From the NCBI RefSeq assembly GCF_041248615.1, contig NZ_CP158426.1: a stretch of DNA of 64,000 nucleotides; one strand, 5' to 3'. Source of the DNA: Escherichia coli (lineage in GTDB: Bacteria; Pseudomonadota; Gammaproteobacteria; Enterobacterales; Enterobacteriaceae). Within the stretch, counting starts at the first letter, position 1; every line of letters starts with the position of its first letter. Below, in pieces: positions 8,367 to 60,527 of this stretch. Below the pieces are notes generated by a model. It was not told the DNA's origin, did not search any database, and worked only from the letters and a program-made list of their open reading frames with translations. The position numbers and the translations under genes are program-made.

Positions 8367-9095
8367 TCACGACTTCGTGACATATCCGCGCTCATCACAA
8401 ACCCGCCCCGCGATTACAATTGACTGAAATATTTCATCGACCATTTCGTTGTACTCGCGTAACGCTCGCGGAAATGAGTCGTCGACCATCCAGCTTGTGT
8501 TTGCATCCTGAAGTTGCTCTTTATCCCAGTCAGAGTACGGAACTTTATCTCTGACGCGGCGAACATATTTTTTAGCCTCGAGTTGATACTGGTCTGCCGA
8601 ATTAATGAACGAGAAATTCATACCGCCTTTATCCGCTTCTTTGGCCTGCGCCACCAGCGTTTCCAGTTCAGAGACTTTCTTCATTGCCGCATCAACATCA
8701 AACTTCTCTTGCGATATCAGGTTATTAATTTGTTTCGCTGAAATCATGACTGCCAGAGAATAGTAGTGGAATGTTTTCCCTTCTCTTTCTTCAATATTTT
8801 TCAGTTCCGCAAGCTGACGCTTATCATTAATTTCCTGGATCGCCGCATGATAAGATTCGGCTACAGGTTCAAAGGCGTCCAGATTTTTTAAGAATGTCTG
8901 GTGCAGCGTTTTCCCTTTCGCAAACGCATCGTCTTTATAATTTTCCTGGGTGTAATATTTATCCATTTCGTTAATGGTATTACCCAACGCCACGGCAGCA
9001 TCAATATAACTCACCGCCACGCCATCAATAGGTTGCAGCGCAGGCGTTAACGCTACTACACGCGTTTTGTTTATAAATAAAATAATAAAATTCAC
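8367..9095 (-). CDS. yiiG: YiiG-like hypothetical protein (DUF3829-like), possibly truncated or divergent
   Basis: 242-aa ORF immediately downstream of fdhD, where K-12 has yiiG. Starts at a GTG abutting the fdhD terminator hairpin, with no signal peptide. I recall K-12 YiiG as longer, so this may be a fragment or a shorter allele. Confidence 0.5.
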   Translation of the reverse strand: MNFIILFINKTRVVALTPALQPIDGVAVSYIDAAVALGNTINEMDKYYTQENYKDDAFAKGKTLHQTFLKNLDAFEPVAESYHAAIQEINDKRQLAELKNIEEREGKTFHYYSLAVMISAKQINNLISQEKFDVDAAMKKVSELETLVAQAKEADKGGMNFSFINSADQYQLEAKKYVRRVRDKVPYSDWDKEQLQDANTSWMVDDSFPRALREYNEMVDEIFQSIVIAGRVCDERGYVTKS

Positions 9096-22738: not shown

Positions 22739-23172
22739 ACCTGCAACCAGAATGTCACGGGGCCATCATTGACCAGCGATACCTGCATATCCGCAGCGAA
22801 GCGTCCTGTTTGCGTGTTCATCTCTTGCTGACGGCAGCGTTCGACGAAATAGTCATATAACGCCTCTGCGCGATCCGGTGATGCACCTTTGGAGAAACTT
22901 GGACGCATCCCCCGTTCGGTATCTGCGGCGAGGGTAAACTGGGAAACCACCAGCACACTGCCGCCCGCCTGTTGCACGTTGAGGTTCATCTTGCCTTCGG
23001 CATCGCTAAAGATGCGATAGCCGAGCACACGCTCGCACAGACGGTTTGCTTTCTGTTCGTCGTCATCCTTTTCGACACCCAATAACACCAAAAGTCCCGC
23101 GCCAATTTCGCCCGTCACTTCTCCCTCCACGGTGACGCTGGCACGGGTTACGCGTTGAATTAATGCAATCAT
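22735..23172 (-). CDS. dtd: D-aminoacyl-tRNA deacylase
   Basis: 145 aa [37 protein letters not shown]...SQFTL... Confidence 0.93.
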
Positions 23173-24041
23173 GGTTCGTCGTCTTCTTCTTGTTCAGCTG
23201 CTTGTTTTAATTTGCGGTATTCCCCGAGAGTGACAGTAATTTCCGCGCCAAGCAAGACGATACACCATGTCCAGTAGACCCAAACAAAGAGAATGGGGAT
23301 CACCGCCAGCACGCCGTAAATGAGCTGATATGACGGGAACATGGTGATATAAAGCGCGAAACCTTTCTTTCCTGCTTCGAACAGGAGTGCAGCGACAAAC
23401 GCGCCGACAATCGCGTCGCGGTTAGGTACACGGATGGTAGGAACGATGCTGTACAGCAGCCAGAAGGAGATCCACGACAACAGCAGCGGAAAAATACGCA
23501 GCACGTTGTCGATGACAGTATTGAGATCGCTCGCCCAGCGCAGGGAGAGCAAATAGGAACTGATCGCCAGACTGGCCCCTGCCAGCAGCGGCCCCAGCGT
23601 TAAAATCATCCAGTACACGGCAAACGAGTAAATTTTTGGTCGCGCTCGTTTACTGCGCCAGATGGTATTCAACGCGCTATCGATGGAGTACATCAACAAT
23701 AACGCCGTGACGATCAGCCCGCACGCCCCAACGGCGGTCATCTTGTTGGAATTGGCAACAAATTGTTCGATATACCGCTGAATAACATCGCCAGTAGCAG
23801 GCAGAAAGTTGGCAAAAATAAAGTGACGCAACTGAATGCTGACGTCGGAAAACATGGGAAAAGCGGCGAAAAGCGCAAAAACAACGGCAACAAGCGGCAC
23901 TAATGAGAGCAACGAAACATAGGCAAGGTTACCTGCCAGGGTTGTCATGTTGTCCTCATCAATGCGTTGCCAGAGTAGTTTTAGCCAGGCCCATAGTGGA
24001 CGGGTACGGTGCCTGGCTTTGTCCTGAATGGTTTTTAGCAT
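23169..24041 (-). CDS. yihY: YihY/BrkB-family inner-membrane protein
   Basis: 290 aa polytopic membrane protein [26 protein letters not shown]... Confidence 0.88.
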
Positions 24042-24634
24042 AACACCTTCGCGAAATAGTCCGGGATGGTGGTTTTATCTTTCACCAGAATACTGGTAAT
24101 GCCTAGCTGATTAGCTCCTTCTATATTATCGGCGTTATCGTCGAAAAAGACCGTATCGCTGGGTGAAAAACCTTCCGCCTGCAAAACATGCTGGTAAATT
24201 CGTGCTTCGGGTTTGCGCATCCCCAGATCTTGCGACAGATAGATATGGTCAGCAGCATCACGAATTTCCGGATATTCTTCCGGCCAGAAGGTGGTATGCA
24301 GGCGGTTGGTATTGGAAAGCACCACCACGCGATGCCCCTGCTCACGCAGTTTATGCATGATGGCGATCACTTCCGGGCGCAGCGCGACAAACACCGCCTG
24401 CCAGCCGTGAGAGAACTGCTCGTAGCTTAGCGGCAGGGCCATCTCATGACACAGCGCCTCTGCGAACGCTTCGTCGCTAATTTCCCCACGCTCATGCTGA
24501 TGAAACGCCTCCCCCATGTGGAAACTCTTCTTAAGCGTAGCCAGTGGAACACGCGTTAAATCGCTCCAGGCTCCCAGCACACGGTTAAAGTCGATATCGA
24601 CAATCACATTACCTAAATCAAAGATATAGAGCAT
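24035..24634 (-). CDS. yihX: HAD-family alpha-D-glucose-1-phosphate phosphatase YihX
   Basis: 199 aa from [16 protein letters not shown] (HAD motif I DxG-type); track ORF extends 7 codons upstream. Confidence 0.88.
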
Positions 24635-24732
24635 TTTTGCCTCCTTTCGCGCCACAAGAAATTAACTGTAGCGGGAAAGGATGGGTTTGGCTATGTGGTC
24701 AGGTATGAAGCAAGGTCAACGGTCACAAAATT

Positions 24733-25518
24733 CTACGCGTCTTCCTGGGGAAGGATGATTTCAATTTGGCTGTCTTGTAAGCGTGATTTTAGCGCAGCGG
24801 GCGGCAGCTCGTCGGTAAAGAGCGCAGTGACCTGTGCCACGTTACCAATTTCAACCGCCGCCGAAGCATGATACTTAGTGTGATCGGCGACCAGCAGAAT
24901 ATTTCTCGCGTGCGCCATCATCGTTTTCACCACGTTAGCTTCGTTTACATCAAACTCCATCAACGCGCCATCGCTCTCAATCGCCCCAACGCTTGTTACC
25001 AGATAATCAGCACGAAAATCAGCCACAAAGGACGCCGCTGAAGGGCCAATGATCCCGCTATTATGAGAGCGCAACGTACCGCCGGGCACCATCACTTCAA
25101 AGCGCGGGTTGTGGTAAAGAATATGCGCCACACGCAGGCTGTTGGTGATTATCCGCAAATGATTGTGGTTAAGTAACGCCCGGGCGACATGTTCAACGGT
25201 CGTACCAATGGTGATAAATATTGTTGAACCATCAGGAATATAGTCTGCCACCGCTTCGGCAATCGCTTTTTTCTCTTCAGTTTGCGAAACCTCACGCTGC
25301 TCAAACGCCGTATTAACGACGCTGGAGGCCCGACCCGCGCCACCGTGATGGCGCGTGATCAGCCCTTGCTCGCTTAATTTACGAATATCCCGGCGGACCG
25401 TCTGCGTGGAGACATCCAGCAGATTTGCCAGCTCATCAATATTCATATACCCACGCTCGGCGATCAGCATGAGGAGTTGGTCGTGCCGCGGGTTACCGGT
25501 TAGTTCGGTAAGGCTCAT
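24733..25518 (-). CDS. csqR: DeoR-family repressor of the sulfoquinovose cluster
   Basis: 261 aa from MSLTELTGNPRHDQLLMLIAERGYMNIDELANLLDVSTQTVRRDIRKL (DeoR HTH plus sugar-binding domain); adjacent to yihV. Confidence 0.85.
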   Translation of the reverse strand: MSLTELTGNPRHDQLLMLIAERGYMNIDELANLLDVSTQTVRRDIRKLSEQGLITRHHGGAGRASSVVNTAFEQREVSQTEEKKAIAEAVADYIPDGSTIFITIGTTVEHVARALLNHNHLRIITNSLRVAHILYHNPRFEVMVPGGTLRSHNSGIIGPSAASFVADFRADYLVTSVGAIESDGALMEFDVNEANVVKTMMAHARNILLVADHTKYHASAAVEIGNVAQVTALFTDELPPAALKSRLQDSQIEIILPQEDA

Positions 25519-25551
25519 GAAAATTCCTCGAAAAACCATCACCCTGGCATT

Positions 25552-26448
25552 TTATACAAAAAGTGACAAAAAAGATCGGGTTTGATCACAGTCAGGGATC
25601 CCGGCTCGTCCACCGGGACGCGTGCATTTCAACGCCGCTACACCGCTGGCGAAGCGGACTGACTCCGCTAAATCCCCATCTGTTGCCAGCGCCACCGCCA
25701 ATGCGCCGTGAAAAACATCACCCGCACCGGTGGTATCTACCACATCAACTTTGAAGGCCGGTTGATGTTGACGTCCGCCATTTTCCAGCCAGTCACAGCC
25801 TGCGCTGCCCTGGGTCACATAGACATGACCATTTGTGAGCGTTTGTGCCTGTTTTAGCGCACTGGCCATCTCTTTCACGCCCGTTAAGCGCACCAGACCC
25901 GGTTCTGAAAAGGCCGCGTGATCGCTTAATGCCACCAGCTCGCTGATATCCTGCGGCGTAATGTCCCCGTCCAGAACGGTCATCACGCCCGCCTGCCGGG
26001 CCAGAGTGAAGGCTTTTTTAGCACCGTCGTGCCAGCGTACATCTGCCAGCACAACATCCCACTGAGAGAAATCAATTTCCTCCAACCACTCTGCGTCAGG
26101 CAGCAGGTCCGGGCTGGGGTAGTTAATGATTATCCGCTCGCCTTTGGCATCCACCATGATGGCGGATTGCGAGGATTTCGCCTGGTTATACCGTTTGGTG
26201 TAACGGGTGTTAACGCCCCAGGATTCCAGCTCTGCCAGCAGGCTGTTGCCCGTGTCGTCATCACCTACGCGACCAATAAAATCAACCTGCGCCCCCAGCC
26301 TTGCCGCCGCAACCGCTGCCGTCGCCGCTGGCCCGCCACCAACTTCCGTATAATTTCTCGCCACGTATTTACCGCTCTCCGTCGGTAATCCTTCCACGTA
26401 ATAAATACGATCCATCACGGTAATACCTACACAAGCAACACGAATCAT
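25552..26448 (-). CDS. yihV: Sulfofructose kinase (PfkB/ribokinase family)
   Basis: 298 aa from MIRVACVGITVMDRIYYV...; PfkB-family signature DTTGAGD. Confidence 0.85.
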   Translation of the reverse strand: MIRVACVGITVMDRIYYVEGLPTESGKYVARNYTEVGGGPAATAAVAAARLGAQVDFIGRVGDDDTGNSLLAELESWGVNTRYTKRYNQAKSSQSAIMVDAKGERIIINYPSPDLLPDAEWLEEIDFSQWDVVLADVRWHDGAKKAFTLARQAGVMTVLDGDITPQDISELVALSDHAAFSEPGLVRLTGVKEMASALKQAQTLTNGHVYVTQGSAGCDWLENGGRQHQPAFKVDVVDTTGAGDVFHGALAVALATDGDLAESVRFASGVAALKCTRPGGRAGIPDCDQTRSFLSLFV

Positions 26449-26615
26449 GGTCATTCCTTAAGCATTTTGGGATGCGTTCATTTTAATTTCACCAATTGTT
26501 TAAAAAGTGACGGCTGTCAATTTTTTGACGATAAATTACAAATACGATCAAAAAAAGACAAGCAAAGCATGTCATAAATGACAAAAAGTGACATCACTGT
26601 ATTCAGGAGAGGGTT

Positions 26616-27512
26616 ATGGCAGCAATCGCGTTTATCGGTTTAGGACAAATGGGTTCGCCAATGGCGAGCAATTTATTGCAGCAAGGGCATCAACTTCGCG
26701 TCTTTGATGTGAACGCCGAAGCTGTGCGGCATCTGGTAGACAAAGGTGCGACTCCCGCCGCCAACCCGGCGCAGGCCGCTAAAGATGCCGAATTTATCAT
26801 TACCATGTTGCCGAATGGCGATCTGGTGCGCAGCGTGTTGTTCGGTGAAAACGGCGTTTGCGAAAGCTTATCTACCGATGCGCTGGTCATCGATATGTCG
26901 ACCATCCATCCGCTGCAAACCGATAAATTGATTGCCGATATGCAAGCCAAAGGCTTCAGCATGATGGATGTTCCGGTAGGCCGTACTTCTGCAAATGCCA
27001 TTACCGGTACTCTGTTACTGCTGGCTGGCGGCACCGCTGAACAAGTTGAACGCGCCACACCGATCCTGATGGCGATGGGCAGTGAGTTGATCAACGCGGG
27101 CGGTCCGGGCATGGGGATCCGCGTTAAGCTCATCAACAACTACATGAGCATCGCGCTCAATGCGCTTTCGGCAGAAGCCGCTGTTTTGTGCGAAGCCCTG
27201 AATCTTCCCTTCGATGTTGCCGTCAAGGTGATGAGCGGCACCGCCGCCGGTAAAGGCCACTTCACCACTTCCTGGCCAAACAAAGTCCTCAGCGGGGATC
27301 TTTCTCCCGCCTTCATGATCGATCTTGCCCATAAGGATCTTGGTATCGCCCTTGATGTCGCCAACCAGCTGCATGTGCCAATGCCGCTGGGGGCCGCCTC
27401 ACGGGAGGTTTATAGCCAGGCGCGCGCAGCGGGTCGCGGTCGCCAGGACTGGTCCGCCATTCTGGAACAGGTCCGTGTCAGTGCCGGGATGACTGCCAAA
27501 GTAAAAATGTAA
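26616..27512 (+). CDS. yihU: 3-sulfolactaldehyde reductase (HIBADH family)
   Basis: 298 aa [21 protein letters not shown]... Rossmann GxGxxG dehydrogenase. Confidence 0.88.
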
Positions 27513-27535
27513 CGACTGGATAAAGGAATAAATGA

Positions 27536-28414
27536 ATGAATAAGTACACCATCAACGACATTACACGCGCATCGGGCGGTTTTGCCATGCTGGCGGTCGA
27601 TCAACGCGAAGCCATGCGCATGATGTTTGCCGCGGCTGGGGCACCCGCTCCAGTAGCCGATAGCGTTTTAACTGATTTCAAAGTTAACGCTGCAAAGGCC
27701 CTCTCGCCTTATGCCTCGGCGATTCTGGTGGATCAGCAATTCTGTTACCGCCAGGTGGTTGAGCAAAACGCGATTGCCAAAAGTTGCGCCATGATTGTCG
27801 CCGCCGATGAGTTCATTCCTGGCAACGGTATTCCGGTAGATAGCGTGGTCATTGACCGCAAAATCAATCCGCTACAAATCAAACAAGACGGTGGCAAAGC
27901 CTTAAAACTGCTGGTGCTGTGGCGTAGTGATGAAGATGCGCAGCAACGTCTGGATATGGTGAAAGAGTTTAACGAACTGTGCCACTCACACGGCCTGGTA
28001 AGCATTATTGAGCCAGTCGTCCGCCCACCACGTCGTGGCGATAAATTCGATCGCGAACAAGCGATCATCGATGCTGCCAAAGAGCTGGGCGACAGTGGCG
28101 CTGACCTCTACAAAGTTGAAATGCCGCTTTACGGTAAAGGTCCGCAACAAGAGCTTCTCAGTGCTTCACAACGTCTGAATGACCATATCAATATGCCGTG
28201 GGTGATACTTTCTTCCGGTGTCGACGAAAAACTGTTCCCGCGTGCCGTACGCGTGGCAATGACAGCGGGTGCATCGGGCTTCCTGGCTGGTCGTGCCGTC
28301 TGGGCATCGGTCGTCGGTTTACCAGACAACGAGCTGATGCTGCGTGACGTTTGCGCACCGAAATTACAACAACTTGGCGATATCGTCGACGAAATGATGG
28401 CTAAACGCCGCTAA
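27536..28414 (+). CDS. yihT: 6-deoxy-6-sulfofructose-1-phosphate aldolase
   Basis: 292 aa class I aldolase-like (LacD/tagatose-bisphosphate aldolase family), [28 protein letters not shown]... Confidence 0.88.
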
Positions 28415-28429
28415 GATGGGGATACAAAA

Positions 28430-29671
28430 ATGAAATGGTTTAACACCTTAAGTCACAACCGTTGGCTGGAACAGGAAACCGACCGCATCTTTGATTTTGG
28501 TAAAAATTCCGTAGTACCGACCGGATTTGGCTGGTTAGGCAATAAAGGGCAAATCAAAGAAGAGATGGGCACCCATCTGTGGATCACCGCTCGTATGTTG
28601 CACGTTTATTCCGTTGCTGCGGCGATGGGTCGACCTGGCGCTTACTCGTTGGTTGATCACGGTATCAAAGCCATGAACGGCGCACTGCGCGATAAAAAAT
28701 ATGGCGGTTGGTATGCCTGCGTGAATGACGAGGGCGTGGTGGATGCCTCCAAACAGGGCTATCAACACTTCTTTGCTCTGCTGGGTGCTGCCAGCGCCGT
28801 CACTACCGGTCACCCGGAAGCCCGTAAACTTCTCGATTACGCCATTGAAATTATTGAGAAATACTTCTGGAGCGAAGAAGAGCAGATGTGCCTGGAGTCC
28901 TGGGACGAAGCCTTCAGCAAAACCGAAGAGTACCGCGGCGGCAATGCCAACATGCACGCGGTGGAAGCCTTCCTGATTGTCTATGACGTCACCCATGACA
29001 AAAAATGGCTGGATCGCGCGATTCGCGTGGCTTCCGTGATTATCCACGACGTCGCCAGAAATAATCATTATCGCGTTAACGAGCACTTCGATACCCAGTG
29101 GAATCCGCTGCCGGATTACAACAAAGATAACCCGGCGCACCGCTTCCGCGCATTCGGTGGCACGCCGGGCCACTGGATCGAATGGGGCCGTTTAATGCTG
29201 CACATCCACGCGGCCCTGGAAGCCCGTTGTGAACAGCCGCCTGCCTGGCTGCTAGAAGATGCCAAAGGTCTATTTAACGCCACCGTGCGCGATGCCTGGG
29301 CACCCGATGGCGCGGACGGGATTGTTTATACCGTTGACTGGGAAGGCAAACCGGTGGTTCGCGAACGTGTGCGTTGGCCTATCGTCGAAGCGATGGGTAC
29401 GGCTTACGCGCTCTACACCGTCACCGGCGATCGCCAGTATGAAACCTGGTATCAGACATGGTGGGACTACTGCATTAAGTACCTGATGGACTATGAAAAT
29501 GGTTCCTGGTGGCAGGAGCTGGATGCGGACAATAAAGTCACCACCAAAGTCTGGGACGGCAAACAGGATATTTATCACCTGCTGCATTGCCTGGTGATCC
29601 CGCGTATCCCGTTAGCGCCAGGCCTGGCTCCGGCGGTTGCAGCGGGCCTGCTGGACATTAACGCGAAATAA
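28430..29671 (+). CDS. yihS: Sulfoquinovose isomerase (AGE/N-acyl-glucosamine epimerase-like)
   Basis: 413 aa [41 protein letters not shown]... Confidence 0.88.
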
Positions 29672-29729
29672 CTGAGCTGAAATAACGGCATATCAGGCTA
29701 CATGCCGGGTATGTCGTTATTCAATAAAG

Positions 29730-30641
29730 GTGCCTCGTATGCAAATCACCAACATGCATTGCAGTGGACAAACCGTTTCACTTGCCGCGGGGGATTATCA
29801 CGCGACTATCGTGACGGTTGGTGCTGGTCTGGCTGAATTAACTTTTCAGGGTTGTCATTTAGTCATCCCACACAAACCCGAAGAGATGCCGCTGGCGCAT
29901 CTGGGTAAAGTGCTTATTCCATGGCCGAACCGGATCGCCAACGGCTGTTATCGCTATCAGGGGCAGGACTATCAGTTACCCATTAATGAACATAGTTCAA
30001 AAGCCGCTATTCACGGGCTGCTTGCCTGGCGTGACTGGCAAATTAGCGAATTAACCGCCACCAGCGTTACCCTGACAGCTTTTCTGCCGCCCAGTTACGG
30101 CTATCCGTTTATGCTGGCTTCACAAGTTGTTTATTCGCTCAATGCACGCACGGGTCTTTCCGTTGAGATCGCAAGCCAGAATATTGGTACTGTGACCGCA
30201 CCTTATGGTGTGGGTATTCATCCTTATTTAACCTGCAACTTAACATCTGTTGATGACTATCTTTTCCAGCTTCCGGCAGAACAGGTTTATGCCGTCGATG
30301 AGCACGCAAATCCGACAACGCTTCACCACGTTGATGAGTTGGATTTAAATTTCACGCAGGCGAAAAAAATAGCCGCGACAAAAATCGACCACACCTTTAA
30401 AACCGCTAATGATCTGTGGGAAATGACCATTACCCATCCACAGCATTTGCTTTCGGTGAGCCTCTGTTCCGATCAACCCTGGGTGCAGGTTTATAGCGGT
30501 GAAAAATTACAGCGTCAGGGACTGGCAGTTGAACCTATGAGTTGCCCGCCTGATGCGTTTAATTCCGGCACCGATTTAATATTACTGCAACCCGGAAAAA
30601 CACACCGCCTGTTTTTTAATATTTACGGACAGAGAAAATAA
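29730..30641 (+). CDS. yihR: Aldose-1-epimerase family protein (sulfoquinovose mutarotase)
   Basis: About 300 aa, aldose epimerase-like; start codon uncertain. Confidence 0.85.
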   Translation: MPRMQITNMHCSGQTVSLAAGDYHATIVTVGAGLAELTFQGCHLVIPHKPEEMPLAHLGKVLIPWPNRIANGCYRYQGQDYQLPINEHSSKAAIHGLLAWRDWQISELTATSVTLTAFLPPSYGYPFMLASQVVYSLNARTGLSVEIASQNIGTVTAPYGVGIHPYLTCNLTSVDDYLFQLPAEQVYAVDEHANPTTLHHVDELDLNFTQAKKIAATKIDHTFKTANDLWEMTITHPQHLLSVSLCSDQPWVQVYSGEKLQRQGLAVEPMSCPPDAFNSGTDLILLQPGKTHRLFFNIYGQRK

Positions 30642-30845
30642 CTTGTATTGATTAGCAGTCAAAATCATTGAAGAACATTTCACTCGCTAAAGGCAACGTT
30701 ATGTATCATCAATTTATTAAGTTAAAAACAGCTCAGCTTCTTTAAAGTTTATATATATCAGTTTTATGAGAATCATTTTACATAAGCCTGTAATAACAAT
30801 AACAGGAAGGAAACAACCTCGTTCTCAACTCTATGGAGATTATTT

Positions 30846-32882
30846 ATGGATACGCCACGCCCACAGTTATTAGATTTTCAATTTCATCAGAATAACGACA
30901 GTCTTACCCTACGTTTTCAGGGCCGTCTTATTTTAACCCATAGTAAAGATAATCCTTGTTTATGGATTGGCTCAGGTATAGCGGATATCGATATGTTCCG
31001 CGGTAATTTCAGCATTAAAGATAAATTGCAGGAGAAGATTGCGCTCACCGACGCTACCGTCAGCCAGTCACCGGATGGCTGGTTAATCCATTTCAGCCGT
31101 GGTTCTGACATTAGCGCCACGCTGCGTATCTCTGCCGACGAACAGGGCCGTTTATTGCTGGAACTACAAAACGACAACCTTAACCACAACCGTATCTGGC
31201 TGCGCCTTGCCGCTCAACCAGAGGACCATATCTACGGCTGCGGTGAACAATTCTCCTACTTTGATCTGCGCGGCAAACCGTTCCCGCTATGGACCAGTGA
31301 ACAAGGCGTTGGTCGCAACAAGCAAACCTATGTCACCTGGCAGGCCGACTGCAAAGAGAACGCGGGCGGCGACTATTACTGGACTTTCTTCCCACAGCCT
31401 ACGTTTGTCAGCACGCAGAAGTATTACTGCCATGTTGATAACAGTTGCTACATGAACTTCGACTTTAGCGCCCCGGAATACCATGAACTGGCGCTGTGGG
31501 AAGACAAAGCAACGCTGCGTTTTGAATGTGCTGATACATACATCTCCCTGCTGGAAAAATTAACTGCCCTGCTGGGACGCCAGCCAGAACTGCCCGACTG
31601 GATTTATGACGGGGTAACGCTCGGCATTCAGGGCGGGACGGAAGTGTGTCAGAAGAAACTGGACACCATGCGTAACGCGGGTGTGAAGGTTAACGGCATC
31701 TGGGCGCAGGACTGGTCCGGGATCCGTATGACCTCTTTTGGCAAACGCGTAATGTGGAACTGGAAGTGGAACAGCGAAAACTATCCGCAACTGGACTCAC
31801 GTATTAAGCAGTGGAACAAAGAGGGCGTGCAGTTCCTGGCCTATATCAACCCGTATGTAGCCAGCGATAAAGATCTCTGCGAAGAGGCGGCAAAGCGCGG
31901 TTATCTGGCAAAAGATGCCTCTGGCGGCGACTATCTGGTGGAGTTTGGCGAGTTCTATGGCGGCGTTGTCGATCTCACCAATCCAGAAGCCTACGCCTGG
32001 TTCAAGGAAGTGATCAAAAAGAACATGATTGAACTTGGCTGCGGCGGCTGGATGGCTGACTTCGGCGAGTATCTGCCCACCGACACGTACCTGCATAACG
32101 GCGTCAGCGCGGAAATTATGCATAACGCCTGGCCCGCGCTGTGGGCGAAATGTAACTACGAAGCCCTTGAAGAAACGGGCAAGCTCGGCGAGATCCTCTT
32201 CTTTATGCGCGCCGGTTCTACCGGTAGCCAGAAATACTCCACCATGATGTGGGCGGGCGACCAGAACGTCGACTGGAGTCTCGACGATGGCCTGGCGTCG
32301 GTTGTCCCGGCGGCGCTGTCGCTGGCAATGACCGGACATGGCCTGCATCACAGCGACATTGGCGGTTACACCACCCTGTTTGAGATGAAGCGCAGCAAAG
32401 AGCTGCTGCTGCGCTGGTGCGATTTCAGCGCCTTCACGCCGATGATGCGCACCCACGAAGGTAACCGTCCTGGCGACAACTGGCAGTTTGACGGCGACGC
32501 GGAAACCATCGCCCATTTCGCCCGTATGACCACCGTCTTCACCACCCTGAAACCTTATCTGAAAGAGGCCGTCGCGCTGAATGCGAAGTCCGGTCTGCCG
32601 GTCATGCGCCCGCTGTTCCTGCATTACGAAGACGATGCGCACACTTACACCCTGAAATATCAGTACCTGTTAGGTCGCGACATTCTGGTCGCTCCGGTGC
32701 ATGAAGAAGGCCGTAGCGACTGGACGCTCTATCTGCCGGAGGATAACTGGCTTCACGTCTGGACGGGTGAAGCGTTCCGGGGCGGGGAAGTTACCGTTAA
32801 TGCGCCCATCGGCAAGCCGCCGGTCTTTTATCGCGCCGATAGCGAATGGGCGGCACTGTTCGCGTCGTTAAAAAGCATCTAA
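30846..32882 (+). CDS. yihQ: Sulfoquinovosidase (GH31 alpha-glycosidase)
   Basis: 678 aa; GH31-like catalytic region (...NGIWAQDWSG..., WMADFGEYLP...). Confidence 0.9.
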   Translation: MDTPRPQLLDFQFHQNNDSLTLRFQGRLILTHSKDNPCLWIGSGIADIDMFRGNFSIKDKLQEKIALTDATVSQSPDGWLIHFSRGSDISATLRISADEQGRLLLELQNDNLNHNRIWLRLAAQPEDHIYGCGEQFSYFDLRGKPFPLWTSEQGVGRNKQTYVTWQADCKENAGGDYYWTFFPQPTFVSTQKYYCHVDNSCYMNFDFSAPEYHELALWEDKATLRFECADTYISLLEKLTALLGRQPELPDWIYDGVTLGIQGGTEVCQKKLDTMRNAGVKVNGIWAQDWSGIRMTSFGKRVMWNWKWNSENYPQLDSRIKQWNKEGVQFLAYINPYVASDKDLCEEAAKRGYLAKDASGGDYLVEFGEFYGGVVDLTNPEAYAWFKEVIKKNMIELGCGGWMADFGEYLPTDTYLHNGVSAEIMHNAWPALWAKCNYEALEETGKLGEILFFMRAGSTGSQKYSTMMWAGDQNVDWSLDDGLASVVPAALSLAMTGHGLHHSDIGGYTTLFEMKRSKELLLRWCDFSAFTPMMRTHEGNRPGDNWQFDGDAETIAHFARMTTVFTTLKPYLKEAVALNAKSGLPVMRPLFLHYEDDAHTYTLKYQYLLGRDILVAPVHEEGRSDWTLYLPEDNWLHVWTGEAFRGGEVTVNAPIGKPPVFYRADSEWAALFASLKSI

Positions 32883-32906
32883 TCACATCCGCCCGTGGGG
32901 AAACTC

Positions 32907-34313
32907 ATGGGCAAAGGGAGAACATCGATGAGTCACATCACAACGGAAGATCCAGCAACTTTACGCCTGCCCTTTAAAGAGAAACTCTCTTACGGTATCG
33001 GCGATCTGGCCTCTAACATCCTGCTGGATATTGGTACGCTTTATCTTTTGAAGTTTTATACCGACGTTCTGGGGCTACCTGGTACCTATGGCGGCATTAT
33101 CTTTTTGATCTCGAAATTCTTTACCGCCTTTACCGATATGGGAACCGGCATCATGTTGGATTCCCGACGCAAGATCGGTCCAAAAGGTAAGTTCCGTCCT
33201 TTTATTCTGTATGCGTCATTCCCGGTCACCTTACTGGCGATCGCCAACTTTGTCGGCACACCGTTTGATGTCACCGGTAAAACGGTGATGGCCACTATTC
33301 TGTTTATGCTTTACGGACTGTTTTTCAGCATGATGAACTGCTCCTACGGCGCAATGGTCCCCGCTATCACCAAAAACCCCAACGAACGCGCCTCACTGGC
33401 GGCATGGCGTCAGGGCGGCGCTACGCTGGGCCTGCTGCTGTGCACGGTGGGATTCGTGCCGGTTATGAATCTTATCGAGGGGAATCAGCAACTTGGCTAT
33501 ATCTTCGCCGCCACGCTGTTTTCACTGTTCGGCCTGCTGTTTATGTGGATCTGCTACTCGGGCGTGAAAGAGCGTTATGTCGAAACCCAACCTGCTAATC
33601 CGGCGCAAAAGCCTGGCCTGTTGCAATCTTTCCGCGCAATTGCCGGTAACCGCCCGCTGTTCATTCTGTGTATTGCTAACCTCTGCACCTTAGGGGCGTT
33701 TAACGTCAAGCTCGCCATTCAGGTTTATTACACCCAGTACGTGCTTAACGATCCCATCCTGTTGTCATATATGGGATTTTTCAGCATGGGCTGTATTTTC
33801 ATCGGCGTGTTCCTGATGCCTGGCGCAGTCAGACGTTTTGGTAAGAAGAAGGTCTATATCGGCGGCCTGCTGATTTGGGTGCTTGGCGATCTGCTCAACT
33901 ATTTCTTTGGCGGCGGTTCGGTCAGCTTCGTGACGTTCTCCTGCCTGGCATTCTTCGGCTCAGCGTTTGTTAACAGCCTGAACTGGGCGCTGGTTTCCGA
34001 CACCGTGGAATATGGCGAATGGCGCACCGGCGTGCGTTCGGAAGGGACGGTCTACACCGGTTTCACCTTCTTTCGCAAAGTTTCTCAGGCGCTGGCTGGT
34101 TTCTTCCCCGGCTGGATGCTGACGCAAATCGGCTATGTGCCGAACGTCGCACAGGCTGACCACACCATTGAAGGGTTGCGCCAGCTGATCTTCATCTACC
34201 CAAGCGCACTGGCAGTAGTCACCATTGTGGCGATGGGTTGCTTCTACAGTCTGAACGAGAAGATGTACGTCCGCATTGTTGAAGAGATAGAAGCCCGTAA
34301 ACGCACGGCGTAA
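32907..34313 (+). CDS. yihP: GPH-family (glycoside-pentoside-hexuronide) cation symporter, sulfoquinovose-cluster transporter
   Basis: Polytopic membrane protein, paralogous to the next gene (shared LKFYTD...GGIIFL...KFFTAFTDM motifs); start chosen at an internal Met, uncertain. Confidence 0.85.
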   Translation: MGKGRTSMSHITTEDPATLRLPFKEKLSYGIGDLASNILLDIGTLYLLKFYTDVLGLPGTYGGIIFLISKFFTAFTDMGTGIMLDSRRKIGPKGKFRPFILYASFPVTLLAIANFVGTPFDVTGKTVMATILFMLYGLFFSMMNCSYGAMVPAITKNPNERASLAAWRQGGATLGLLLCTVGFVPVMNLIEGNQQLGYIFAATLFSLFGLLFMWICYSGVKERYVETQPANPAQKPGLLQSFRAIAGNRPLFILCIANLCTLGAFNVKLAIQVYYTQYVLNDPILLSYMGFFSMGCIFIGVFLMPGAVRRFGKKKVYIGGLLIWVLGDLLNYFFGGGSVSFVTFSCLAFFGSAFVNSLNWALVSDTVEYGEWRTGVRSEGTVYTGFTFFRKVSQALAGFFPGWMLTQIGYVPNVAQADHTIEGLRQLIFIYPSALAVVTIVAMGCFYSLNEKMYVRIVEEIEARKRTA

Positions 34314-34355
34314 TTATAATAAACAACGCCCTGCGGGGCGTTATAAGGAGTGATT

Positions 34356-35759
34356 ATGTCTGACCATAATCCACTGACATTAAGACTGAATCTGCGGGAA
34401 AAAATCGCCTATGGTATGGGCGACGTCGGTTCGAATTTAATGCTCTGCATCGGTACTCTGTATCTCCTCAAATTTTATACCGATGAATTAGGGATGCCTG
34501 CTTACTATGGCGGGATTATCTTTCTGGTGGCGAAGTTTTTTACCGCGTTTACCGATATGCTCACCGGATTTTTACTCGACTCGCGGAAAAATATTGGGCC
34601 TAAAGGCAAATTTCGTCCCTTTATTTTATATGCAGCGGTTCCGGCGGCGTTAATTGCAACGCTCCAGTTTATCGCCACCACCTTTAGTTTGCCGGTTAAA
34701 ACGACGATTGCCACCGCACTGTTTATGATGTTTGGACTTTCATACAGTCTGATGAACTGCTCGTATGGTGCGATGATCCCGGCAATTACCAAAAACCCGA
34801 ATGAGCGCGCGCAGCTCGCGGCTTACCGCCAGGGTGGTGCAACCATAGGGCTATTGATTTGTACCGTGGCGTTTATTCCGTTGCAGTCGCTTTTTTCTGA
34901 CTCCACCGTCGGTTATGCCTGCGCGGCACTGATGTTCTCCATTGGTGGCTTTATTTTTATGATGCTGTGCTACAGAGGCGTCAAAGAGCATTATGTGGAC
35001 ACGACGCCAACCGGACATAAAGCCAGTATTCTCAAATCTTTTTGCGCGATATTTCGTAATCCGCCATTGCTGGTTTTGTGCATTGCTAACCTGTGTACCC
35101 TGGCGGCATTTAATATCAAACTGGCGATTCAGGTCTATTACACCCAATATGTGCTGAATGATATTAATTTATTGTCGTGGATGGGATTTTTCAGTATGGG
35201 ATGTATCCTCGTCGGCGTATTACTGGTGCCATTAACTGTAAAATGTTTTGGTAAAAAACAGGTTTATTTAGCTGGCATGGTGCTATGGGCGGTTGGTGAT
35301 ATCCTGAATTATTTCTGGGGAAGTAACTCTTTCACTTTCGTCATGTTCTCTTGTGTCGCCTTTTTTGGCACGGCCTTTGTGAACAGCCTGAACTGGGCGC
35401 TGGTACCAGATACCGTAGATTACGGTGAATGGAAAACCGGTATTCGTGCCGAAGGTTCTGTTTATACCGGTTATACCTTCTTTCGTAAAATTTCTGCCGC
35501 ACTTGCTGGCTTCTTGCCAGGCATTATGCTGACGCAAATCGGTTATGTTCCCAACATCGCGCAAAGTGATGCGACATTACAGGGTTTGCGTCAGCTCATT
35601 TTTATCTGGCCTTGTGCGCTGGCAATTATTGCTGCATTGACGATGGGATTCTTTTACACACTCAATGAAAAACGGTTTGCATTGATTATTGAGGAAATCA
35701 ACCAACGCAAAAATAAAGAGATGGCGACAGAAGAAAAAACAGCTTCCGTAACGTTATAA
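34356..35759 (+). CDS. yihO: GPH-family sulfoquinovose transporter
   Basis: 467 aa from MSDHNPLTLRLNLREKIAYGMGD...; paralog of yihP. Confidence 0.87.
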   Translation: MSDHNPLTLRLNLREKIAYGMGDVGSNLMLCIGTLYLLKFYTDELGMPAYYGGIIFLVAKFFTAFTDMLTGFLLDSRKNIGPKGKFRPFILYAAVPAALIATLQFIATTFSLPVKTTIATALFMMFGLSYSLMNCSYGAMIPAITKNPNERAQLAAYRQGGATIGLLICTVAFIPLQSLFSDSTVGYACAALMFSIGGFIFMMLCYRGVKEHYVDTTPTGHKASILKSFCAIFRNPPLLVLCIANLCTLAAFNIKLAIQVYYTQYVLNDINLLSWMGFFSMGCILVGVLLVPLTVKCFGKKQVYLAGMVLWAVGDILNYFWGSNSFTFVMFSCVAFFGTAFVNSLNWALVPDTVDYGEWKTGIRAEGSVYTGYTFFRKISAALAGFLPGIMLTQIGYVPNIAQSDATLQGLRQLIFIWPCALAIIAALTMGFFYTLNEKRFALIIEEINQRKNKEMATEEKTASVTL

Positions 35760-35826
35760 ATGTCAATAGCCGCTATTTCCATCCTGGTGGGTGGCGGCCT
35801 CCCTACGTTTAAAAAATGGACTTATT

Positions 35827-36519
35827 ATGAAAAAGATTAATGCAATAATTTTATTATCTTCTCTGACCTCTGCCTCGGTATTTGCTGGCGCATACGTCGA
35901 AAACAGGGAGGCATATAATCTCGCCTCCGATCAGGGCGAGGTTATGCTACGTGTGGGTTATAACTTCGATATGGGCGCGGGTATTATGTTAACCAATACC
36001 TATAACTATCAGCGAGAAGATGAACTAAAACATGGATATAACGAAATCGAAGGTTGGTATCCTTTATTTAAACCAACCGATAAATTAACCATCCAGCCCG
36101 GTGGCTTAATTAATGATAAGAGTATCGGTTCGGGTGGTGCCGTTTATCTGGATGTTAACTACAAATTTACTCCGTGGTTTAACCTGACGGTGCGTAATCG
36201 CTATAACCATAATAATTACAGCTCTACAGATTTGAACGGCGAATTGGATAATAACGACACCTATGAAGTTGGCACCTACTGGAATTTTAAAATCACCGAG
36301 AAATTCTCCTATACATTTGAACCACATTACTTCATGCGAGTAAATGACTTTAATAGCAGCAATGGAAAAGATCATCACTGGGAAATCACTAACACCTTCC
36401 GTTATCGCATTAATGAACACTGGCTCCCTTATTTCGAATTACGCTGGTTAGATCGTAATGTCGAACCGTACCACCGCGAGCAAAACCAGATTCGTATCGG
36501 GACGAAGTATTTCTTCTGA
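35827..36519 (+). CDS. ompL: Outer-membrane porin OmpL
   Basis: 230 aa from MKKINAIILLSSLTSASVFA (signal peptide) ... C-terminal RIGTKYFF beta-barrel signature. Confidence 0.88.
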   Translation: MKKINAIILLSSLTSASVFAGAYVENREAYNLASDQGEVMLRVGYNFDMGAGIMLTNTYNYQREDELKHGYNEIEGWYPLFKPTDKLTIQPGGLINDKSIGSGGAVYLDVNYKFTPWFNLTVRNRYNHNNYSSTDLNGELDNNDTYEVGTYWNFKITEKFSYTFEPHYFMRVNDFNSSNGKDHHWEITNTFRYRINEHWLPYFELRWLDRNVEPYHREQNQIRIGTKYFF

Positions 36520-36524
36520 TGTAA

Positions 36525-36610
36525 AACTGCCGGATGCGGCGAAAACGCCTTATCCGGCCTACGGTTGATACGGTTTCCGTTGGCCGGATTAAGCCACATC
36601 CGGCCATTAA
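36525..36610. repeat. REP element(s) between ompL and yihN
   Basis: gccggatgcggcgaaaacgccttatccggcctac plus a partner palindrome ggccggattaagccacatccggcc. Confidence 0.65.
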
Positions 36611-37876
36611 TTAAGCTTCAGCCGCCAGCATCTCTTTCTTACGTTGGCTAATACGCTTAACCAGCATTACGGAAACCACCGCACCACAGAATGCGAAGCA
36701 GGCCATAATGCCAAACACGATTTTGTAGCCAATAATCCCCGGATTTAAATCCAGAATGTAGCCATACAGACTGAAGCAGAACATCGCCGGGGCGTAACCA
36801 ATAAAGCTACCCAACGCCATCGCCGCGCCTGTTTTATTTTCAGCAATTTTTGCTTCGCCGATAGGTGCAAAAAATACGGCTCGCTGTGTAAAGACTATAG
36901 CGCCAAAGCCCAGCGTACATGCCATCCCTAAATAAACCGGCATACTTTCGTGCGGCAGCATAATCAACAGTACGAGCGCAGCGGTACTGATGATAAAGGT
37001 GTAGCATAGATATTTACTCGGCGATTTCAGGATCTTATCTGAAATCATGCCACCAATCGGTCCACCAATCATTTTCAGACAGTATTGGTTAATGATGCCG
37101 TAAGCCCCCACCAGCGCAACGGGCAATAGATAGATGTTTTTCAGGAATGGAATGAAGAATGTCAGGCCACAGTAAACCGCGTAAACGAAGAAGACGTTGA
37201 AAGCGATAAGCCAGATAGTTTTGTCTTTCAGCACCGAGGTCATACTGGTGTTTTTCGATGCTCCGTCTTCTTTTTTCACCTCAACGGACGGTGCCTCTTC
37301 TTTGTCATTCAGAACAAAGAAAATGATAATGCCTACGGCAATCACAATAAGGGAATAGAACCAGATGCCTGCTTTAAAACCCAATAAGCCACTGCCAAAC
37401 CAGGTAAATACTGCCAACGCAGAAAATGCCACCACGGTATCGACAATGCCACGCCCTGTTTCGAAGAAGCCAAACAACCGACCTTGTTGTTCGCTATTGC
37501 CCAATCGACTTACCGACTTGAGCAAGACCGGCCAGTTCATCATGTCGCAAGTAACGCCAAATAGCGCCCAGACAAAGAGGATGCCCCAATACCCCGGCAT
37601 TGTCGTCAAATAAACACCCAGTAATCCTGTCGCAATGAGTGAGAATGACATGGTGTATCTGCGCGGTAGTTTATCGGCAAAATAAATAGACAGAAAAAAG
37701 CCCACTGTCGTGACAAATGAGTTTACCGACATAGCATTACCAATTTGACCATTGGTCAAATGGAAATATTCCTGCATCGGGATATAAAACGCATCTTTCA
37801 GCGACGGTAATTTATAAATTGTACCGCCACACAATGTTAATAGACTAAATAACGCCCATTTCTTTTTCGTGAGCAT
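36611..37876 (-). CDS. yihN: MFS transporter YihN
   Basis: 421 aa, about 12 transmembrane segments, MLTKKKWALFSLLTLCGGTIYKLPSLKDAFYIPMQEYF... Confidence 0.85.
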   Translation of the reverse strand: MLTKKKWALFSLLTLCGGTIYKLPSLKDAFYIPMQEYFHLTNGQIGNAMSVNSFVTTVGFFLSIYFADKLPRRYTMSFSLIATGLLGVYLTTMPGYWGILFVWALFGVTCDMMNWPVLLKSVSRLGNSEQQGRLFGFFETGRGIVDTVVAFSALAVFTWFGSGLLGFKAGIWFYSLIVIAVGIIIFFVLNDKEEAPSVEVKKEDGASKNTSMTSVLKDKTIWLIAFNVFFVYAVYCGLTFFIPFLKNIYLLPVALVGAYGIINQYCLKMIGGPIGGMISDKILKSPSKYLCYTFIISTAALVLLIMLPHESMPVYLGMACTLGFGAIVFTQRAVFFAPIGEAKIAENKTGAAMALGSFIGYAPAMFCFSLYGYILDLNPGIIGYKIVFGIMACFAFCGAVVSVMLVKRISQRKKEMLAAEA

Positions 37877-37977
37877 AACATCCCCTAAGCGATTTTTAAA
37901 ATCACTGTTTTAAAGGCAATAAGATACCGACCATTCATATGGAATGGTTTTATTAACTGCGTATGAGTTAAAACTTA

Positions 37978-38958
37978 TTAGTGGTTCAGAAGATGGTTTG
38001 CCTCTTGTTTGATTTGTTGTAGTACGTTACGCACATGATTTATCTGATTAATTGCATCTTCTTTTTCTTTACGTAACCGCGCATCCAGTAAATGATTTTC
38101 TGGCAATGGTGTTTCACTCATCTGGCGATAAGGGATCCACGGATTATCATCTTCGTCTTCAAAGCGGAACGCCGGCGCATAGTAATCAACCTCTTCTTCC
38201 AGGCCATATGCCGTCACCTGCGGCTCATCATCACCCAGGCAGATAAGGTGCGTTAATAACGCTTTGAACGGCATATCACCCTGACCTGAAATACAGGCTT
38301 TATGACCCAGGCCACCCTCTTCTTTAACGATCAAGGCATCTTTGATATGGACCTGGGTAATATGCGGTGCCATCGTTTTTAAAGCGTCGATGGGATGCTC
38401 ATTTGCATTGATCATGTTCGCAAAATCAAACAGTAAGGAAAGAGATTCCATCTTACTTTCTTTGACCAGCGACACCAGCTCATGGCTTTTTAAATCTTCA
38501 TGCTGTTCGATCGTAAAAGTCAGGCCGCTGTCCTGATACGTTTCCCGTACATAGGCAATGTCGTTAGCGATGATCGATAATACGTCGCGCAAATTACCTT
38601 CATAACGTGGATAAAAACGTACGGACGATGCCCCAGTTTTCAACGCAATGGCGACGGCTTCGTCAATAGATGCCTTATCTGAAGCGCTGGTTTCAATATG
38701 AATATCAAGGTTCAGACGGCGGGCTTTATCCCCAAAGGCAGAGAGTTCTTTATCGTCCATATTACCAAGAGAAAAACGCTCGCCATCTAGAACATGGATT
38801 TTGACGCCACGTAGATTATTTTCACTTGCGATATCAAGTAAATCAGCAGGCAACACTCTTTCCAGCCGCATATTTAAATGAAAGGCATAAGCATGTAAAT
38901 AAAGAGGAAGAGTGTCGACACGTTGTAGAATCTTTCTTGCGTTATTTATTGTCACCAT
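37978..38958 (-). CDS. yihM: Sugar-phosphate isomerase/epimerase (xylose-isomerase-like TIM barrel) YihM
   Basis: 326 aa MVTINNARKILQRVDTLPLYLHAYAFHLNMRLE... Confidence 0.82.
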   Translation of the reverse strand: MVTINNARKILQRVDTLPLYLHAYAFHLNMRLERVLPADLLDIASENNLRGVKIHVLDGERFSLGNMDDKELSAFGDKARRLNLDIHIETSASDKASIDEAVAIALKTGASSVRFYPRYEGNLRDVLSIIANDIAYVRETYQDSGLTFTIEQHEDLKSHELVSLVKESKMESLSLLFDFANMINANEHPIDALKTMAPHITQVHIKDALIVKEEGGLGHKACISGQGDMPFKALLTHLICLGDDEPQVTAYGLEEEVDYYAPAFRFEDEDDNPWIPYRQMSETPLPENHLLDARLRKEKEDAINQINHVRNVLQQIKQEANHLLNH

Positions 38959-38965
38959 AAAACAC

Positions 38966-39676
38966 CTACAGATTAATGATGAGGTCTACGGCCTCAAATC
39001 GCCAATATTCAATATCTATCTGGACAATATTGCCTTGCTGGTCGGCGCGATGCTTTTCAATTAAGATCGCTGGCATACCCGCAGAACCGCCAAGATACTT
39101 GCTGATATCGCCCGGCATTCTGACGGGTTTGAAAATCAATTTTTTTACTACCGTCTCTTTTTGGTAGCACTTTTCCCAGACTGCAGAAAATGAGTGGTTG
39201 TCAAGTTGTTCAATAAAACCCGGAGCAACTTCAGGATTAATATATGTTTCGTGATAGAAAACTTTATGTCCTTCCAGCGCCCCCCAGCCGGTGATGCGAT
39301 AGAGTTCAGTTGATGGTGTCACTGCAATCAGTGGCGCGAGCGTCTCGGGAATATCGCTGGTACGGTTTTTCTCGGTAAACCCCCAGGAAGGCTCTCGTCC
39401 TTGCTCAATTGCGGCCCGCTGAAAGCTCGCTGACAGCTCCGGACTGTAATTAAATCGCGGCTGGGTCACGAACCACCCCTTACGATCCTTACGGAAGATT
39501 TTGGATTCTGCCTCGAGGTTCAACAACGCCTGGCGCAGCGTCATACGTTTAATGCCCAGCAGTTCTCCCAGCTCTCTTTCTGAAGGGAGTTTTCCACCCG
39601 GCGTGGTGATGCCATCTTTCAACCACCGATCCAGTTTCTCTTTTGCATTTTCTACGGTGGATTGATTCTCCGCCAT
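38966..39676 (-). CDS. yihL: GntR-family transcriptional regulator YihL
   Basis: 236 aa, N-terminal winged HTH (SERELGELLGIKRMTLRQALLNLEAE) with UTRA-like C-terminal domain. Confidence 0.82.
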   Translation of the reverse strand: MAENQSTVENAKEKLDRWLKDGITTPGGKLPSERELGELLGIKRMTLRQALLNLEAESKIFRKDRKGWFVTQPRFNYSPELSASFQRAAIEQGREPSWGFTEKNRTSDIPETLAPLIAVTPSTELYRITGWGALEGHKVFYHETYINPEVAPGFIEQLDNHSFSAVWEKCYQKETVVKKLIFKPVRMPGDISKYLGGSAGMPAILIEKHRADQQGNIVQIDIEYWRFEAVDLIINL

Positions 39677-39845
39677 TGTTTAATCCTTTTGGTTTAAACC
39701 AGATGAAGCATCTTACGCTTACGCCAAAAAAGAAAGCAATTAACGGTGTATGACTTTGCAGATAATTGTGACAAAGCTCTCTATTGACGTAATCACAGAC
39801 TTATAAGGGAGATACTCGCATTGGTGTGCGCTCACGACAGGTAAA

Positions 39846-39878
39846 AAAAAACCTGCCAGCGATGGCAGGTTTTTTATA
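39846..39878 (-). terminator. Rho-independent terminator downstream of typA (bidirectional hairpin)
   Basis: aaaaaaaaacctgccagcgatggcaggttttttat: GC stem flanked by A-run and T-run, 15 bp past the typA stop. Confidence 0.75.
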
Positions 39879-39892
39879 ACTAAAAAACGAAA

Positions 39893-59668: not shown

Positions 59669-60527
<859 letters not shown>

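Follow-up and report, generated by a model that had tools for sequence, protein, structure and literature searches.

The yih genes of Escherichia coli raised two questions in the window, the whole 64,000-nt stretch of DNA analyzed here. Do they make up a complete sulfoquinovose (SQ) degradation pathway, as stated in the preliminary description, and do they belong to the conserved core of the species, as it also assumed? The pathway enables E. coli in the gut and the environment to exploit the head group of the plant sulfolipid, an abundant substrate, and supplies dihydroxypropanesulfonate (DHPS) to sulfite-respiring bacteria. It has been described together with its regulation (PMC9594981, PMC8006165, PMC12608037), and the sulfo-EMP cluster of K-12 is credited to Denger et al. 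2014 (Nature 507:114) in the account relayed by PMC9594981. In the window, the cluster spans 24733-35759, coordinates that coincide exactly with the stop codons of csqR and yihO. The csqR and yihV genes are on the minus strand, yihU-T-S-R-Q-P-O on the plus strand, and ompL comes after yihO:

24733-25518, minus strand: csqR (yihW), DeoR-family repressor of the cluster, 261 aa, named csqR by RefSeq in the identical record
25552-26448, minus strand: yihV, sulfofructose kinase of the PfkB/ribokinase family, 298 aa
26449-26615, no strand: divergent regulatory yihV/yihU spacer, 167 nt, main CsqR target
26616-27512, plus strand: yihU, NADH-dependent sulfolactaldehyde 3-reductase
27536-28414, plus strand: yihT, class I sulfofructose-1-phosphate aldolase
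28430-29671, plus strand: yihS, sulfoquinovose isomerase
29739-30641, plus strand: yihR, sulfoquinovose mutarotase of the aldose 1-epimerase family, 300 aa
30642-30845, no strand: AT-rich yihR-yihQ spacer, 204 nt, the site of a TauE/SafE gene in about 1297 other genomes
30846-32882, plus strand: yihQ, GH31 sulfoquinovosidase, 678 aa
32928-34313, plus strand: yihP, GPH-family transporter, proposed DHPS exporter
34356-35759, plus strand: yihO, GPH-family transporter, proposed importer of SQ and SQ-glycerol
35827-36519, plus strand: ompL, porin of the outer membrane and final gene of the long cassette

The ORF listing gave uninterrupted reading frames with K-12-equivalent starts for all ten genes. 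Their content, order, and orientation are those of ompL-yihOPQRSTUVW (b3875-b3884) in K-12 MG1655, and the flanks also agree, with yihX on one side and yihN-yihM-yihL-typA on the other. Positions 24000-37000 are 100% identical to strain NRZ14408 (NZ_LT599825.1), in which RefSeq names the same ten genes and marks none of them as a pseudogene. When the ten K-12 MG1655 proteins were aligned with the window by tblastn, every alignment was full-length and gap-free, the identities ranged from 95.1% (YihR) to 100% (CsqR), and no frameshift or internal stop was found in any of the ten genes. At the nucleotide level, the window and K-12 are about 96.7% identical with uneven synonymous divergence, and dN/dS lies between 0.00 and 0.14 for every gene. 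The NCBIfam equivalog models for YihU, YihR, YihQ, and OmpL exceeded their cut-offs, as did the GPH model for YihP and YihO. The preliminary description had pointed to frameshifts or low identity to the K-12 YihO-YihW proteins as evidence against an intact cluster; both were sought and neither was seen. Its gene identities, order, intactness, and placement of ompL are thus borne out by the RefSeq annotation, the K-12 alignments, the family models, and the inspection of functional residues.

This inspection covered 26 catalytic or sulfonate-pocket residues in five enzymes (YihV, YihU, YihT, YihS, and YihQ), all of which are unchanged. YihV is 99.0% identical to its K-12 counterpart, with the substitutions T101A, A186V, and S257D, none of them at a listed functional site; it keeps the pocket residues K27, N109, and R138, the catalytic base D244, and D13, S95, and D162. 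YihU (99.3%; 603 bits against the "sulfolactaldehyde 3-reductase" equivalog NF012005, cut-off 348) retains the pocket residues N174, S178, and R123 as well as the functional residue K171. YihT (99.7%) differs from K-12 only by C209S and keeps the Schiff-base lysine K193 together with R253, S226, S227, and A26, and YihS (99.3%) keeps both the catalytic H248/H383 and the R55-Q362-Q379 pocket. YihQ (98.4%; NF007746, 1242 bits) matches the E. coli sulfoquinovosidase structures 5aed, 5aee, 5aeg, and 5oht in the PDB from end to end and has the sulfonate pocket R301-W304-Y508 in addition to D405 and D472. These two aspartates are reported to be the catalytic Asp pair (Speciale et al. 2016). Most of the list was taken from PMC8006165, which reports the pocket residues of YihQ and YihU and the pocket and catalytic residues of YihS, YihV, and YihT and establishes, by structures and kinetics, strict sulfosugar selectivity with dedicated sulfonate pockets for YihS, YihV, and YihT.

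These selective pockets also bear on a different function that has been proposed for the genes. Salmonella enterica carries yihUTSRQPO and yihVW operons which, going by their published description, have the same divergent two-operon layout and the YihW repressor. They were first described in the context of the O-antigen capsule and reported as controlling its biosynthesis (PMC7922415), and a report from the group studying CsqR holds that the cassette may be regulated by lactose (PMC10991401). The genes could accordingly serve mainly capsule assembly or a lactose-linked pathway. However, a 100-fold derepression of yihU in Salmonella did not raise the capsule yield (PMC7922415), and every residue of the sulfosugar-selective pockets of YihS, YihV, and YihT (PMC8006165) is kept in the window. 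We consider such a main function improbable in the extreme; a capsule or lactose role, if there is any, would add to sulfoglycolysis and not replace it.

The three membrane proteins of the cluster, whose genes share one direction of transcription, are similarly close to K-12. YihP (99.3%; 536 bits) and YihO (99.4%; 529 bits) are paralogues with 64.7% identity to each other, both matching TIGR00792, the GPH symporter family. OmpL is 97.8% identical (NF007434, 471 bits), and its gene has the highest synonymous divergence from K-12 in the cluster (dS 0.33). Even the K-12 annotation labels the roles of the three proteins as putative, YihO appearing there as a "putative sulfoquinovose transporter"; the export of DHPS by YihP is proposed by that annotation and by PMC12890257.

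We are almost certain, judging from the sequence, in which nothing points the other way, that the locus is the canonical E. coli sulfo-EMP (sulfoglycolysis) cluster, orthologous to K-12 yihO-yihW plus ompL and apparently functional. The steps of the pathway can be assigned by orthology to the characterized proteins of K-12 and Salmonella, from which YihS and YihT were used for the sulfoglycolysis structures (PMC8006165). OmpL would probably pass sulfoquinovose or sulfoquinovosyl-glycerol across the outer membrane, and YihO would import SQ or SQ-glycerol. YihQ is expected to hydrolyze the glycoside to alpha-SQ, with YihR making anomerization faster, and YihS to isomerize SQ to sulfofructose. 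After ATP-dependent phosphorylation of sulfofructose by YihV, YihT would split sulfofructose-1-phosphate into sulfolactaldehyde and DHAP, with DHAP feeding into glycolysis; YihU would then reduce sulfolactaldehyde with NADH to dihydroxypropanesulfonate for export by YihP. The source strain thus appears to hold a full sulfoglycolysis pathway. The cluster is already known and there is nothing new in the window's own copy, the value of which is for annotation only.

Regulation is likely to follow K-12, where CsqR binds the yihU/V spacer and the yihV/W region and is released by SQ (PMC12608037). CsqR would repress the two divergent units, yihV-csqR and yihU...ompL, until SQ and related sulfosugars release it. 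The window has the divergent arrangement and the conserved target spacers of this DeoR-family regulator, compared as whole spacers: 164 of 167 nt in the yihV/yihU spacer and all 33 nt in the csqR-yihV spacer (25519-25551) are as in K-12. CsqR itself, identical to the K-12 protein, keeps the predicted ligand residues and Met25, the alternative start of a short isoform. Scans for consensus elements over 24000-40000 did not exceed the background, as 16 promoter-like sites were found against 20.0 expected from shuffled sequence, and 24 terminator-like sites against 18.9, no better than shuffled sequence. An Rfam scan of 21000-41000 gave nothing within the cluster; its sole match was STnc370 at 39840-39908, on the typA terminator.

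A complete cluster might still lie silent or have no physiological relevance, a state described for the "short" cassette of Nissle 1917. According to Kaznadzey et al. 2025 (PMC12608037), carrying yih genes does not ensure induction by SQ, the short cassette being transcriptionally unresponsive. This silence was, however, a property of the short cassette, whereas the long cassette of K-12 was induced by SQ (PMC12608037). The window has the long form, with its invariant CsqR and near-identical operator spacers, and all its genes are under strong purifying selection (dN/dS no higher than 0.14, with dS reaching 0.33), which speaks against a locus in decay or out of use. A silent cluster is very improbable here, and the canonical pathway is probably active and regulated in the source strain.

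Two long antisense ORFs, within yihS (28535-29173) and yihQ (31797-32642), were regarded as frames that arise by chance, as is common on the strand opposite a real gene.

The second question received a different answer. The preliminary description had treated the cluster as conserved core, but yihQ occurs in only about 72% of the complete E. coli genomes (3909 of 5426), and about a quarter of all the genomes (about 1386, including Nissle 1917) have another cassette in the yihX-typA interval. Homology to a locus with this alternative cassette (L003) ends at 24698 and restarts at 39843. In the window, the block that is swapped thus covers 24699-39842, reaching beyond ompL to include three further genes:

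36611-39676, minus strand: yihN, yihM, and yihL, inside the swapped block, not assigned a function in SQ degradation

YihN, YihM, and YihL are 99.4-99.8% identical to their K-12 counterparts (dS 0.03), and all three genes are missing from the genomes with the alternative cassette. E. coli has three alternative forms of this locus; the yih cluster is one of them and not fixed core DNA. Because the block 24699-39842 is a polymorphic cassette, the cluster is unfit as a "conserved core" baseline. The long/short polymorphism itself was already published in 2025, with the short form as "short yihTUVW" (Kaznadzey et al., PMC12608037).

A repeat search found no direct repeats or att-like sites at either swap boundary, where there are just terminator-like hairpins of yihX (24642-24681) and typA (39841-39880). 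Finding neither kind of site, we abandoned a site-specific mobile element as the explanation and prefer homologous recombination within the conserved flanks.

The third version of the locus differs from the window between yihR and yihQ. About 1297 genomes with yihQ (about 24% of the genomes) carry an extra TauE/SafE gene at this position. This TauE/SafE long cassette, as in Survcare321 and O157:H7 Sakai, contains the same ten genes as the window, and positions 26000-30500 and 31500-32500 of the window are 99-100% identical to it, nearer than to K-12. Instead of the TauE/SafE gene, however, the window has an AT-rich spacer of the K-12 type, about 200 nt in length; 191 of its 204 nt are identical to the K-12 counterpart (198 nt). 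The spacer contains no TauE/SafE remnants and is unrelated to the approximately 1-kb TauE-bearing segment of the corresponding locus (L007). The window thus combines TauE-type flanks with a K-12-type yihR-yihQ junction, which suggests that its allele arose by recombination between the two long types.

The gene next to this junction encodes the most diverged protein of the cluster. YihR differs from K-12 by 15 substitutions (dN/dS 0.13), which are clustered towards the C-terminus, although it scores 613 bits against the equivalog NF011719 (cut-off 251) over residues 1-300 of 300. A structure search found no solved structure of a close YihR relative. We set the start at the ATG at 29739 from the RefSeq annotation and the family model, giving 300 aa as opposed to 308 aa in the K-12 annotation. 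The upstream yihS-yihR spacer is only 67 nt in the window compared with 137 nt in K-12, where it holds a GC-rich palindromic repeat insertion that the window lacks. YihR has 300 and not 308 residues because the K-12 start codon sits inside this K-12-specific insertion.

The short cassette, found in Nissle 1917 and many ExPEC strains (PMC12608037), occupies the same yihX-typA slot as the long form. Its homologues of CsqR, YihV, YihU, and YihT are 66-72% identical to the window proteins, and the kinase, aldolase, and reductase retain all catalytic and sulfonate-pocket residues. The cassette is inverted in orientation and lacks yihQ, yihS, yihO, yihP, ompL, yihN, yihM, and yihL, having instead a Zn-dependent dehydrogenase, two MFS transporters outside the GPH family, and a distant epimerase-like protein. 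In the one copy that we read, there are eight genes as opposed to the four of the published yihTUVW. The window, with all ten genes of the long cassette, is not of this Nissle-type form.

These comparisons led us to a tentative reading, which we think possible but rather doubtful. The yihX-typA interval might be a "sulfosugar slot" with three alleles swapped by recombination (long, long with TauE/SafE, and "short"), in which the short allele, published as truncated and probably non-functional, would encode with its eight genes a full pathway for some sulfonated substrate that is not an SQ glycoside, and the window would be a recombinant without TauE/SafE. The kinase, aldolase, and reductase of the short allele, with their intact sulfonate pockets, would work with a Zn-dependent dehydrogenase of polyol type and with other MFS transporters, which take the places of YihQ, YihS, YihO, and YihP. 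A literature search gave no match for sulfonated polyols as candidate substrates of the short-cassette Zn-dependent dehydrogenase. If the slot does have three such alleles, the TauE/SafE gene would have been lost from the window's allele or never gained by it.

The TauE/SafE long allele and the eight-gene short allele both lie outside the window's sequence and are of possible interest for sulfosugar metabolism.

The mechanical ORF list gives open reading frames without interruption over positions 24733-36519, two of them minus-strand and eight plus-strand. The translated annotated K-12 coding sequences were used as queries in tblastn against the window, and all ten proteins aligned without gaps from the first to the last residue, with the identities given below.

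Identity of the cluster proteins to their K-12 counterparts
CsqR (YihW), minus strand, stop codon ending at 24733: 100%
YihV, minus strand: 99.0%
YihU, plus strand: 99.3%
YihT, plus strand: 99.7%
YihS, plus strand: 99.3%
YihR, plus strand: 95.1%
YihQ, plus strand: 98.4%
YihP, plus strand: 99.3%
YihO, plus strand, gene ending at 35759: 99.4%
OmpL, plus strand: 97.8%

Among 5426 complete E. coli genomes compared by megablast, E. coli NRZ14408 (NZ_LT599825.1) was 100% identical to window 24000-37000. The RefSeq annotation of this identical stretch lists yihX, csqR, yihV, yihU, yihT, yihS, yihR, yihQ, yihP, yihO, ompL and yihN, with zero pseudogene flags, and K-12 MG1655 has the same gene set, order and relative orientation. 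The ORF list, the RefSeq annotation and the tblastn comparison all bear out the preliminary description of a complete and intact sulfoquinovose (SQ) cluster followed by ompL. Its limits are exact: the csqR stop codon ends at 24733, and yihO at 35759. The comparison with the K-12 YihO-YihW proteins, proposed there as a check, gave end-to-end alignments at 95.1-100% identity, and tblastn detected neither frameshifts or premature stops in the cluster nor low identity. The finding is correct, and it is textbook E. coli biology that was already known.

The family assignments agree with this reading. YihU (sulfolactaldehyde 3-reductase), YihR, YihQ and OmpL scored far over the cut-offs of their NCBIfam equivalog models, and YihQ matched solved structures of the E. 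coli sulfoquinovosidase (5aed, 5aee, 5aeg and 5oht) over its full length. YihP and YihO, with a mutual identity of 64.7%, both matched the GPH symporter model. Three further functional residues, YihQ D405 and D472 and YihU K171, were included with the published ones. The published catalytic and sulfonate-pocket residues are H248, H383, R55, Q362 and Q379 in YihS, K27, N109, R138, D244, D13, S95 and D162 in YihV, K193, R253, S226, S227 and A26 in YihT, R301, W304 and Y508 in YihQ, and N174, S178 and R123 in YihU (PMC8006165). Every listed residue, including the three additions, is the same as the reference in the five window proteins, and Met25 of CsqR is unchanged.

By orthology to the reviewed pathway (PMC9594981; PMC8006165), SQ-glycerol or SQ would be taken up, putatively through OmpL and YihO, YihQ would free alpha-SQ and YihR would anomerise it. 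YihS would then produce sulfofructose, to be phosphorylated by YihV, and YihT would split sulfofructose-1-phosphate into DHAP and sulfolactaldehyde. YihU would reduce the latter to dihydroxypropanesulfonate (DHPS), for whose export YihP is thought to be responsible. CsqR would repress both transcription units until a sulfosugar is bound. The divergent yihV/yihU spacer (26449-26615) is identical to K-12 at 164 of 167 positions and the csqR/yihV spacer at 33 of 33; both regions are reported to be bound by CsqR and released by SQ (PMC12608037). Scans for consensus promoters and terminators performed no better than on shuffled sequence. Two other roles proposed in the literature may exist in addition, namely assembly of the O-antigen capsule in Salmonella (PMC7922415) and a connection with lactose (PMC10991401). 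Neither matches the strictness with which the enzymes select sulfosugars, and the Salmonella study itself saw no increase in capsule yield when yihU was derepressed 100-fold (PMC7922415).

The label of conserved core, which the preliminary description had given to the cluster, did not hold: yihQ is present in 3909 of the 5426 complete genomes, and the block is replaceable. In genomes without yihQ, homology to the window ends at 24698, just beyond the yihX terminator hairpin, and restarts at 39843; the typA terminator hairpin located there is the Rfam STnc370 match. This places the swapped block at 24699-39842, with yihN, yihM and yihL inside it, three genes outside the published 'long cassette'. 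All of the DNA from the yihX terminator to the typA terminator is a replaceable cassette. Both boundaries lie on terminator-like hairpins, and no direct repeats flank them. The STnc370 match (39840-39908, minus strand; an enterobacterial sRNA) scored 54.9 bits against a gathering score of 54, and overlaps a hairpin with 18-nt arms downstream of typA, exactly at the right-hand boundary.

About one quarter of the complete genomes carry an inverted 8.7-kb alternative in this interval (L003:9700-18391, the locus of E. coli 382634_2f). The long/short polymorphism, its common location and the inverted orientation were published by Kaznadzey et al. 2025 (PMC12608037) and are therefore already known. 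The one copy of the published 'short yihTUVW' cassette that was analysed (L003:9776-18334) is inverted relative to the window and has eight genes, co-oriented or divergent, encoding an epimerase-like protein, two non-GPH MFS transporters, a Zn-dependent polyol-type dehydrogenase, and homologues of YihT, YihU, YihV and the DeoR regulator CsqR that are 66-72% identical to the window proteins. About 1386 genomes, Nissle 1917 among them, carry the four additional genes (L003:9700-14640). None of the catalytic and sulfonate-pocket residues is lost in the short-cassette kinase, aldolase and reductase. This suggests that the cassette may still be a working route for a sulfonated substrate of some kind, not a truncated remnant. 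Term searches of the main text of PMC12608037 returned neither the four genes nor the pocket retention, and we found no literature on the short cassette as an eight-gene sulfonated-substrate route.

The long cassette itself varies. A TauE/SafE-family gene (at L007:6643-7685 in the locus compared with the window) lies between yihR and yihQ in about 1297 of the 5426 genomes, including O157:H7 Sakai, and this TauE/SafE-bearing long cassette is a third allele of the locus. At the same site, the window (30642-30845) and K-12 share an AT-rich spacer of about 200 nt that is unrelated to the TauE/SafE segment; about 2633 genomes have this spacer. The gene went unmentioned in the searched text of the E. 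coli yih papers, including the long/short cassette paper (PMC12608037). These observations on allelic diversity are relevant to work on sulfosugar metabolism, and they concern other genomes rather than the window. IS200C lies between ompL and yihN (L006:12521-13322) in pig ETEC/O139 strains, whose alleles are the closest to the window after two 100% matches (99.5-99.6% identity); IS1, IS1397 or IS903B insertions occur in or near the cassette in other strains.

In a sliding comparison, 26000-30500 and 31500-32500 were 99-100% identical to a TauE-bearing allele (L007), as against a K-12 identity of only 95-98% across most of the yihV-yihR stretch and the central part of yihQ. The yihR-yihQ junction has the K-12-type spacer despite these flanks, so that the window allele looks like a recombinant of the two long types. 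Synonymous divergence from K-12 is very uneven (dS 0.03-0.04 in yihL, yihM and yihN, 0.22 in yihS and 0.33 in ompL), which points to a mosaic history. Judging by Nei-Gojobori counts against K-12, which gave dN/dS of 0.00-0.14 in 14 of 14 genes from yihX to yihL, these genes are under purifying selection.

YihR is the most diverged cluster protein, with changes grouped near the C-terminus and dN/dS still at 0.13. The yihS-yihR spacer (29672-29738) measures 67 nt in the window versus 137 nt in K-12, where it contains a GC-rich palindromic repeat of about 70 nt that the window lacks. Since the ATG of the annotated 308-residue K-12 YihR sits in this K-12-specific sequence, the ATG corresponding to window 29739 is probably the conserved start. 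This is the first in-frame ATG of the window yihR and gives 300 residues, all of them (1-300/300) covered by the family model.

Elsewhere in the window, the 'yiiE-yiiD island' between yiiE and fabY (yiiD) at 16975-21334 holds several small hypothetical genes, a NadS-family gene with an adjoining small hypothetical gene, an alpha/beta hydrolase, a transposase and a truncated pseudogene; its NadS and hydrolase genes were also found in the unrelated strain 382634_2f. The genes rhaM and fdhD are separated by a gene for a carbohydrate porin and a truncated pseudogene of yiiG (6619-9056). Downstream of mobB, the IS3-family element IS1397, with a programmed frameshift (about 59147-60495), directly adjoins the end of an rRNA operon (60604-63978; 5S, 23S and tRNA-Ala).
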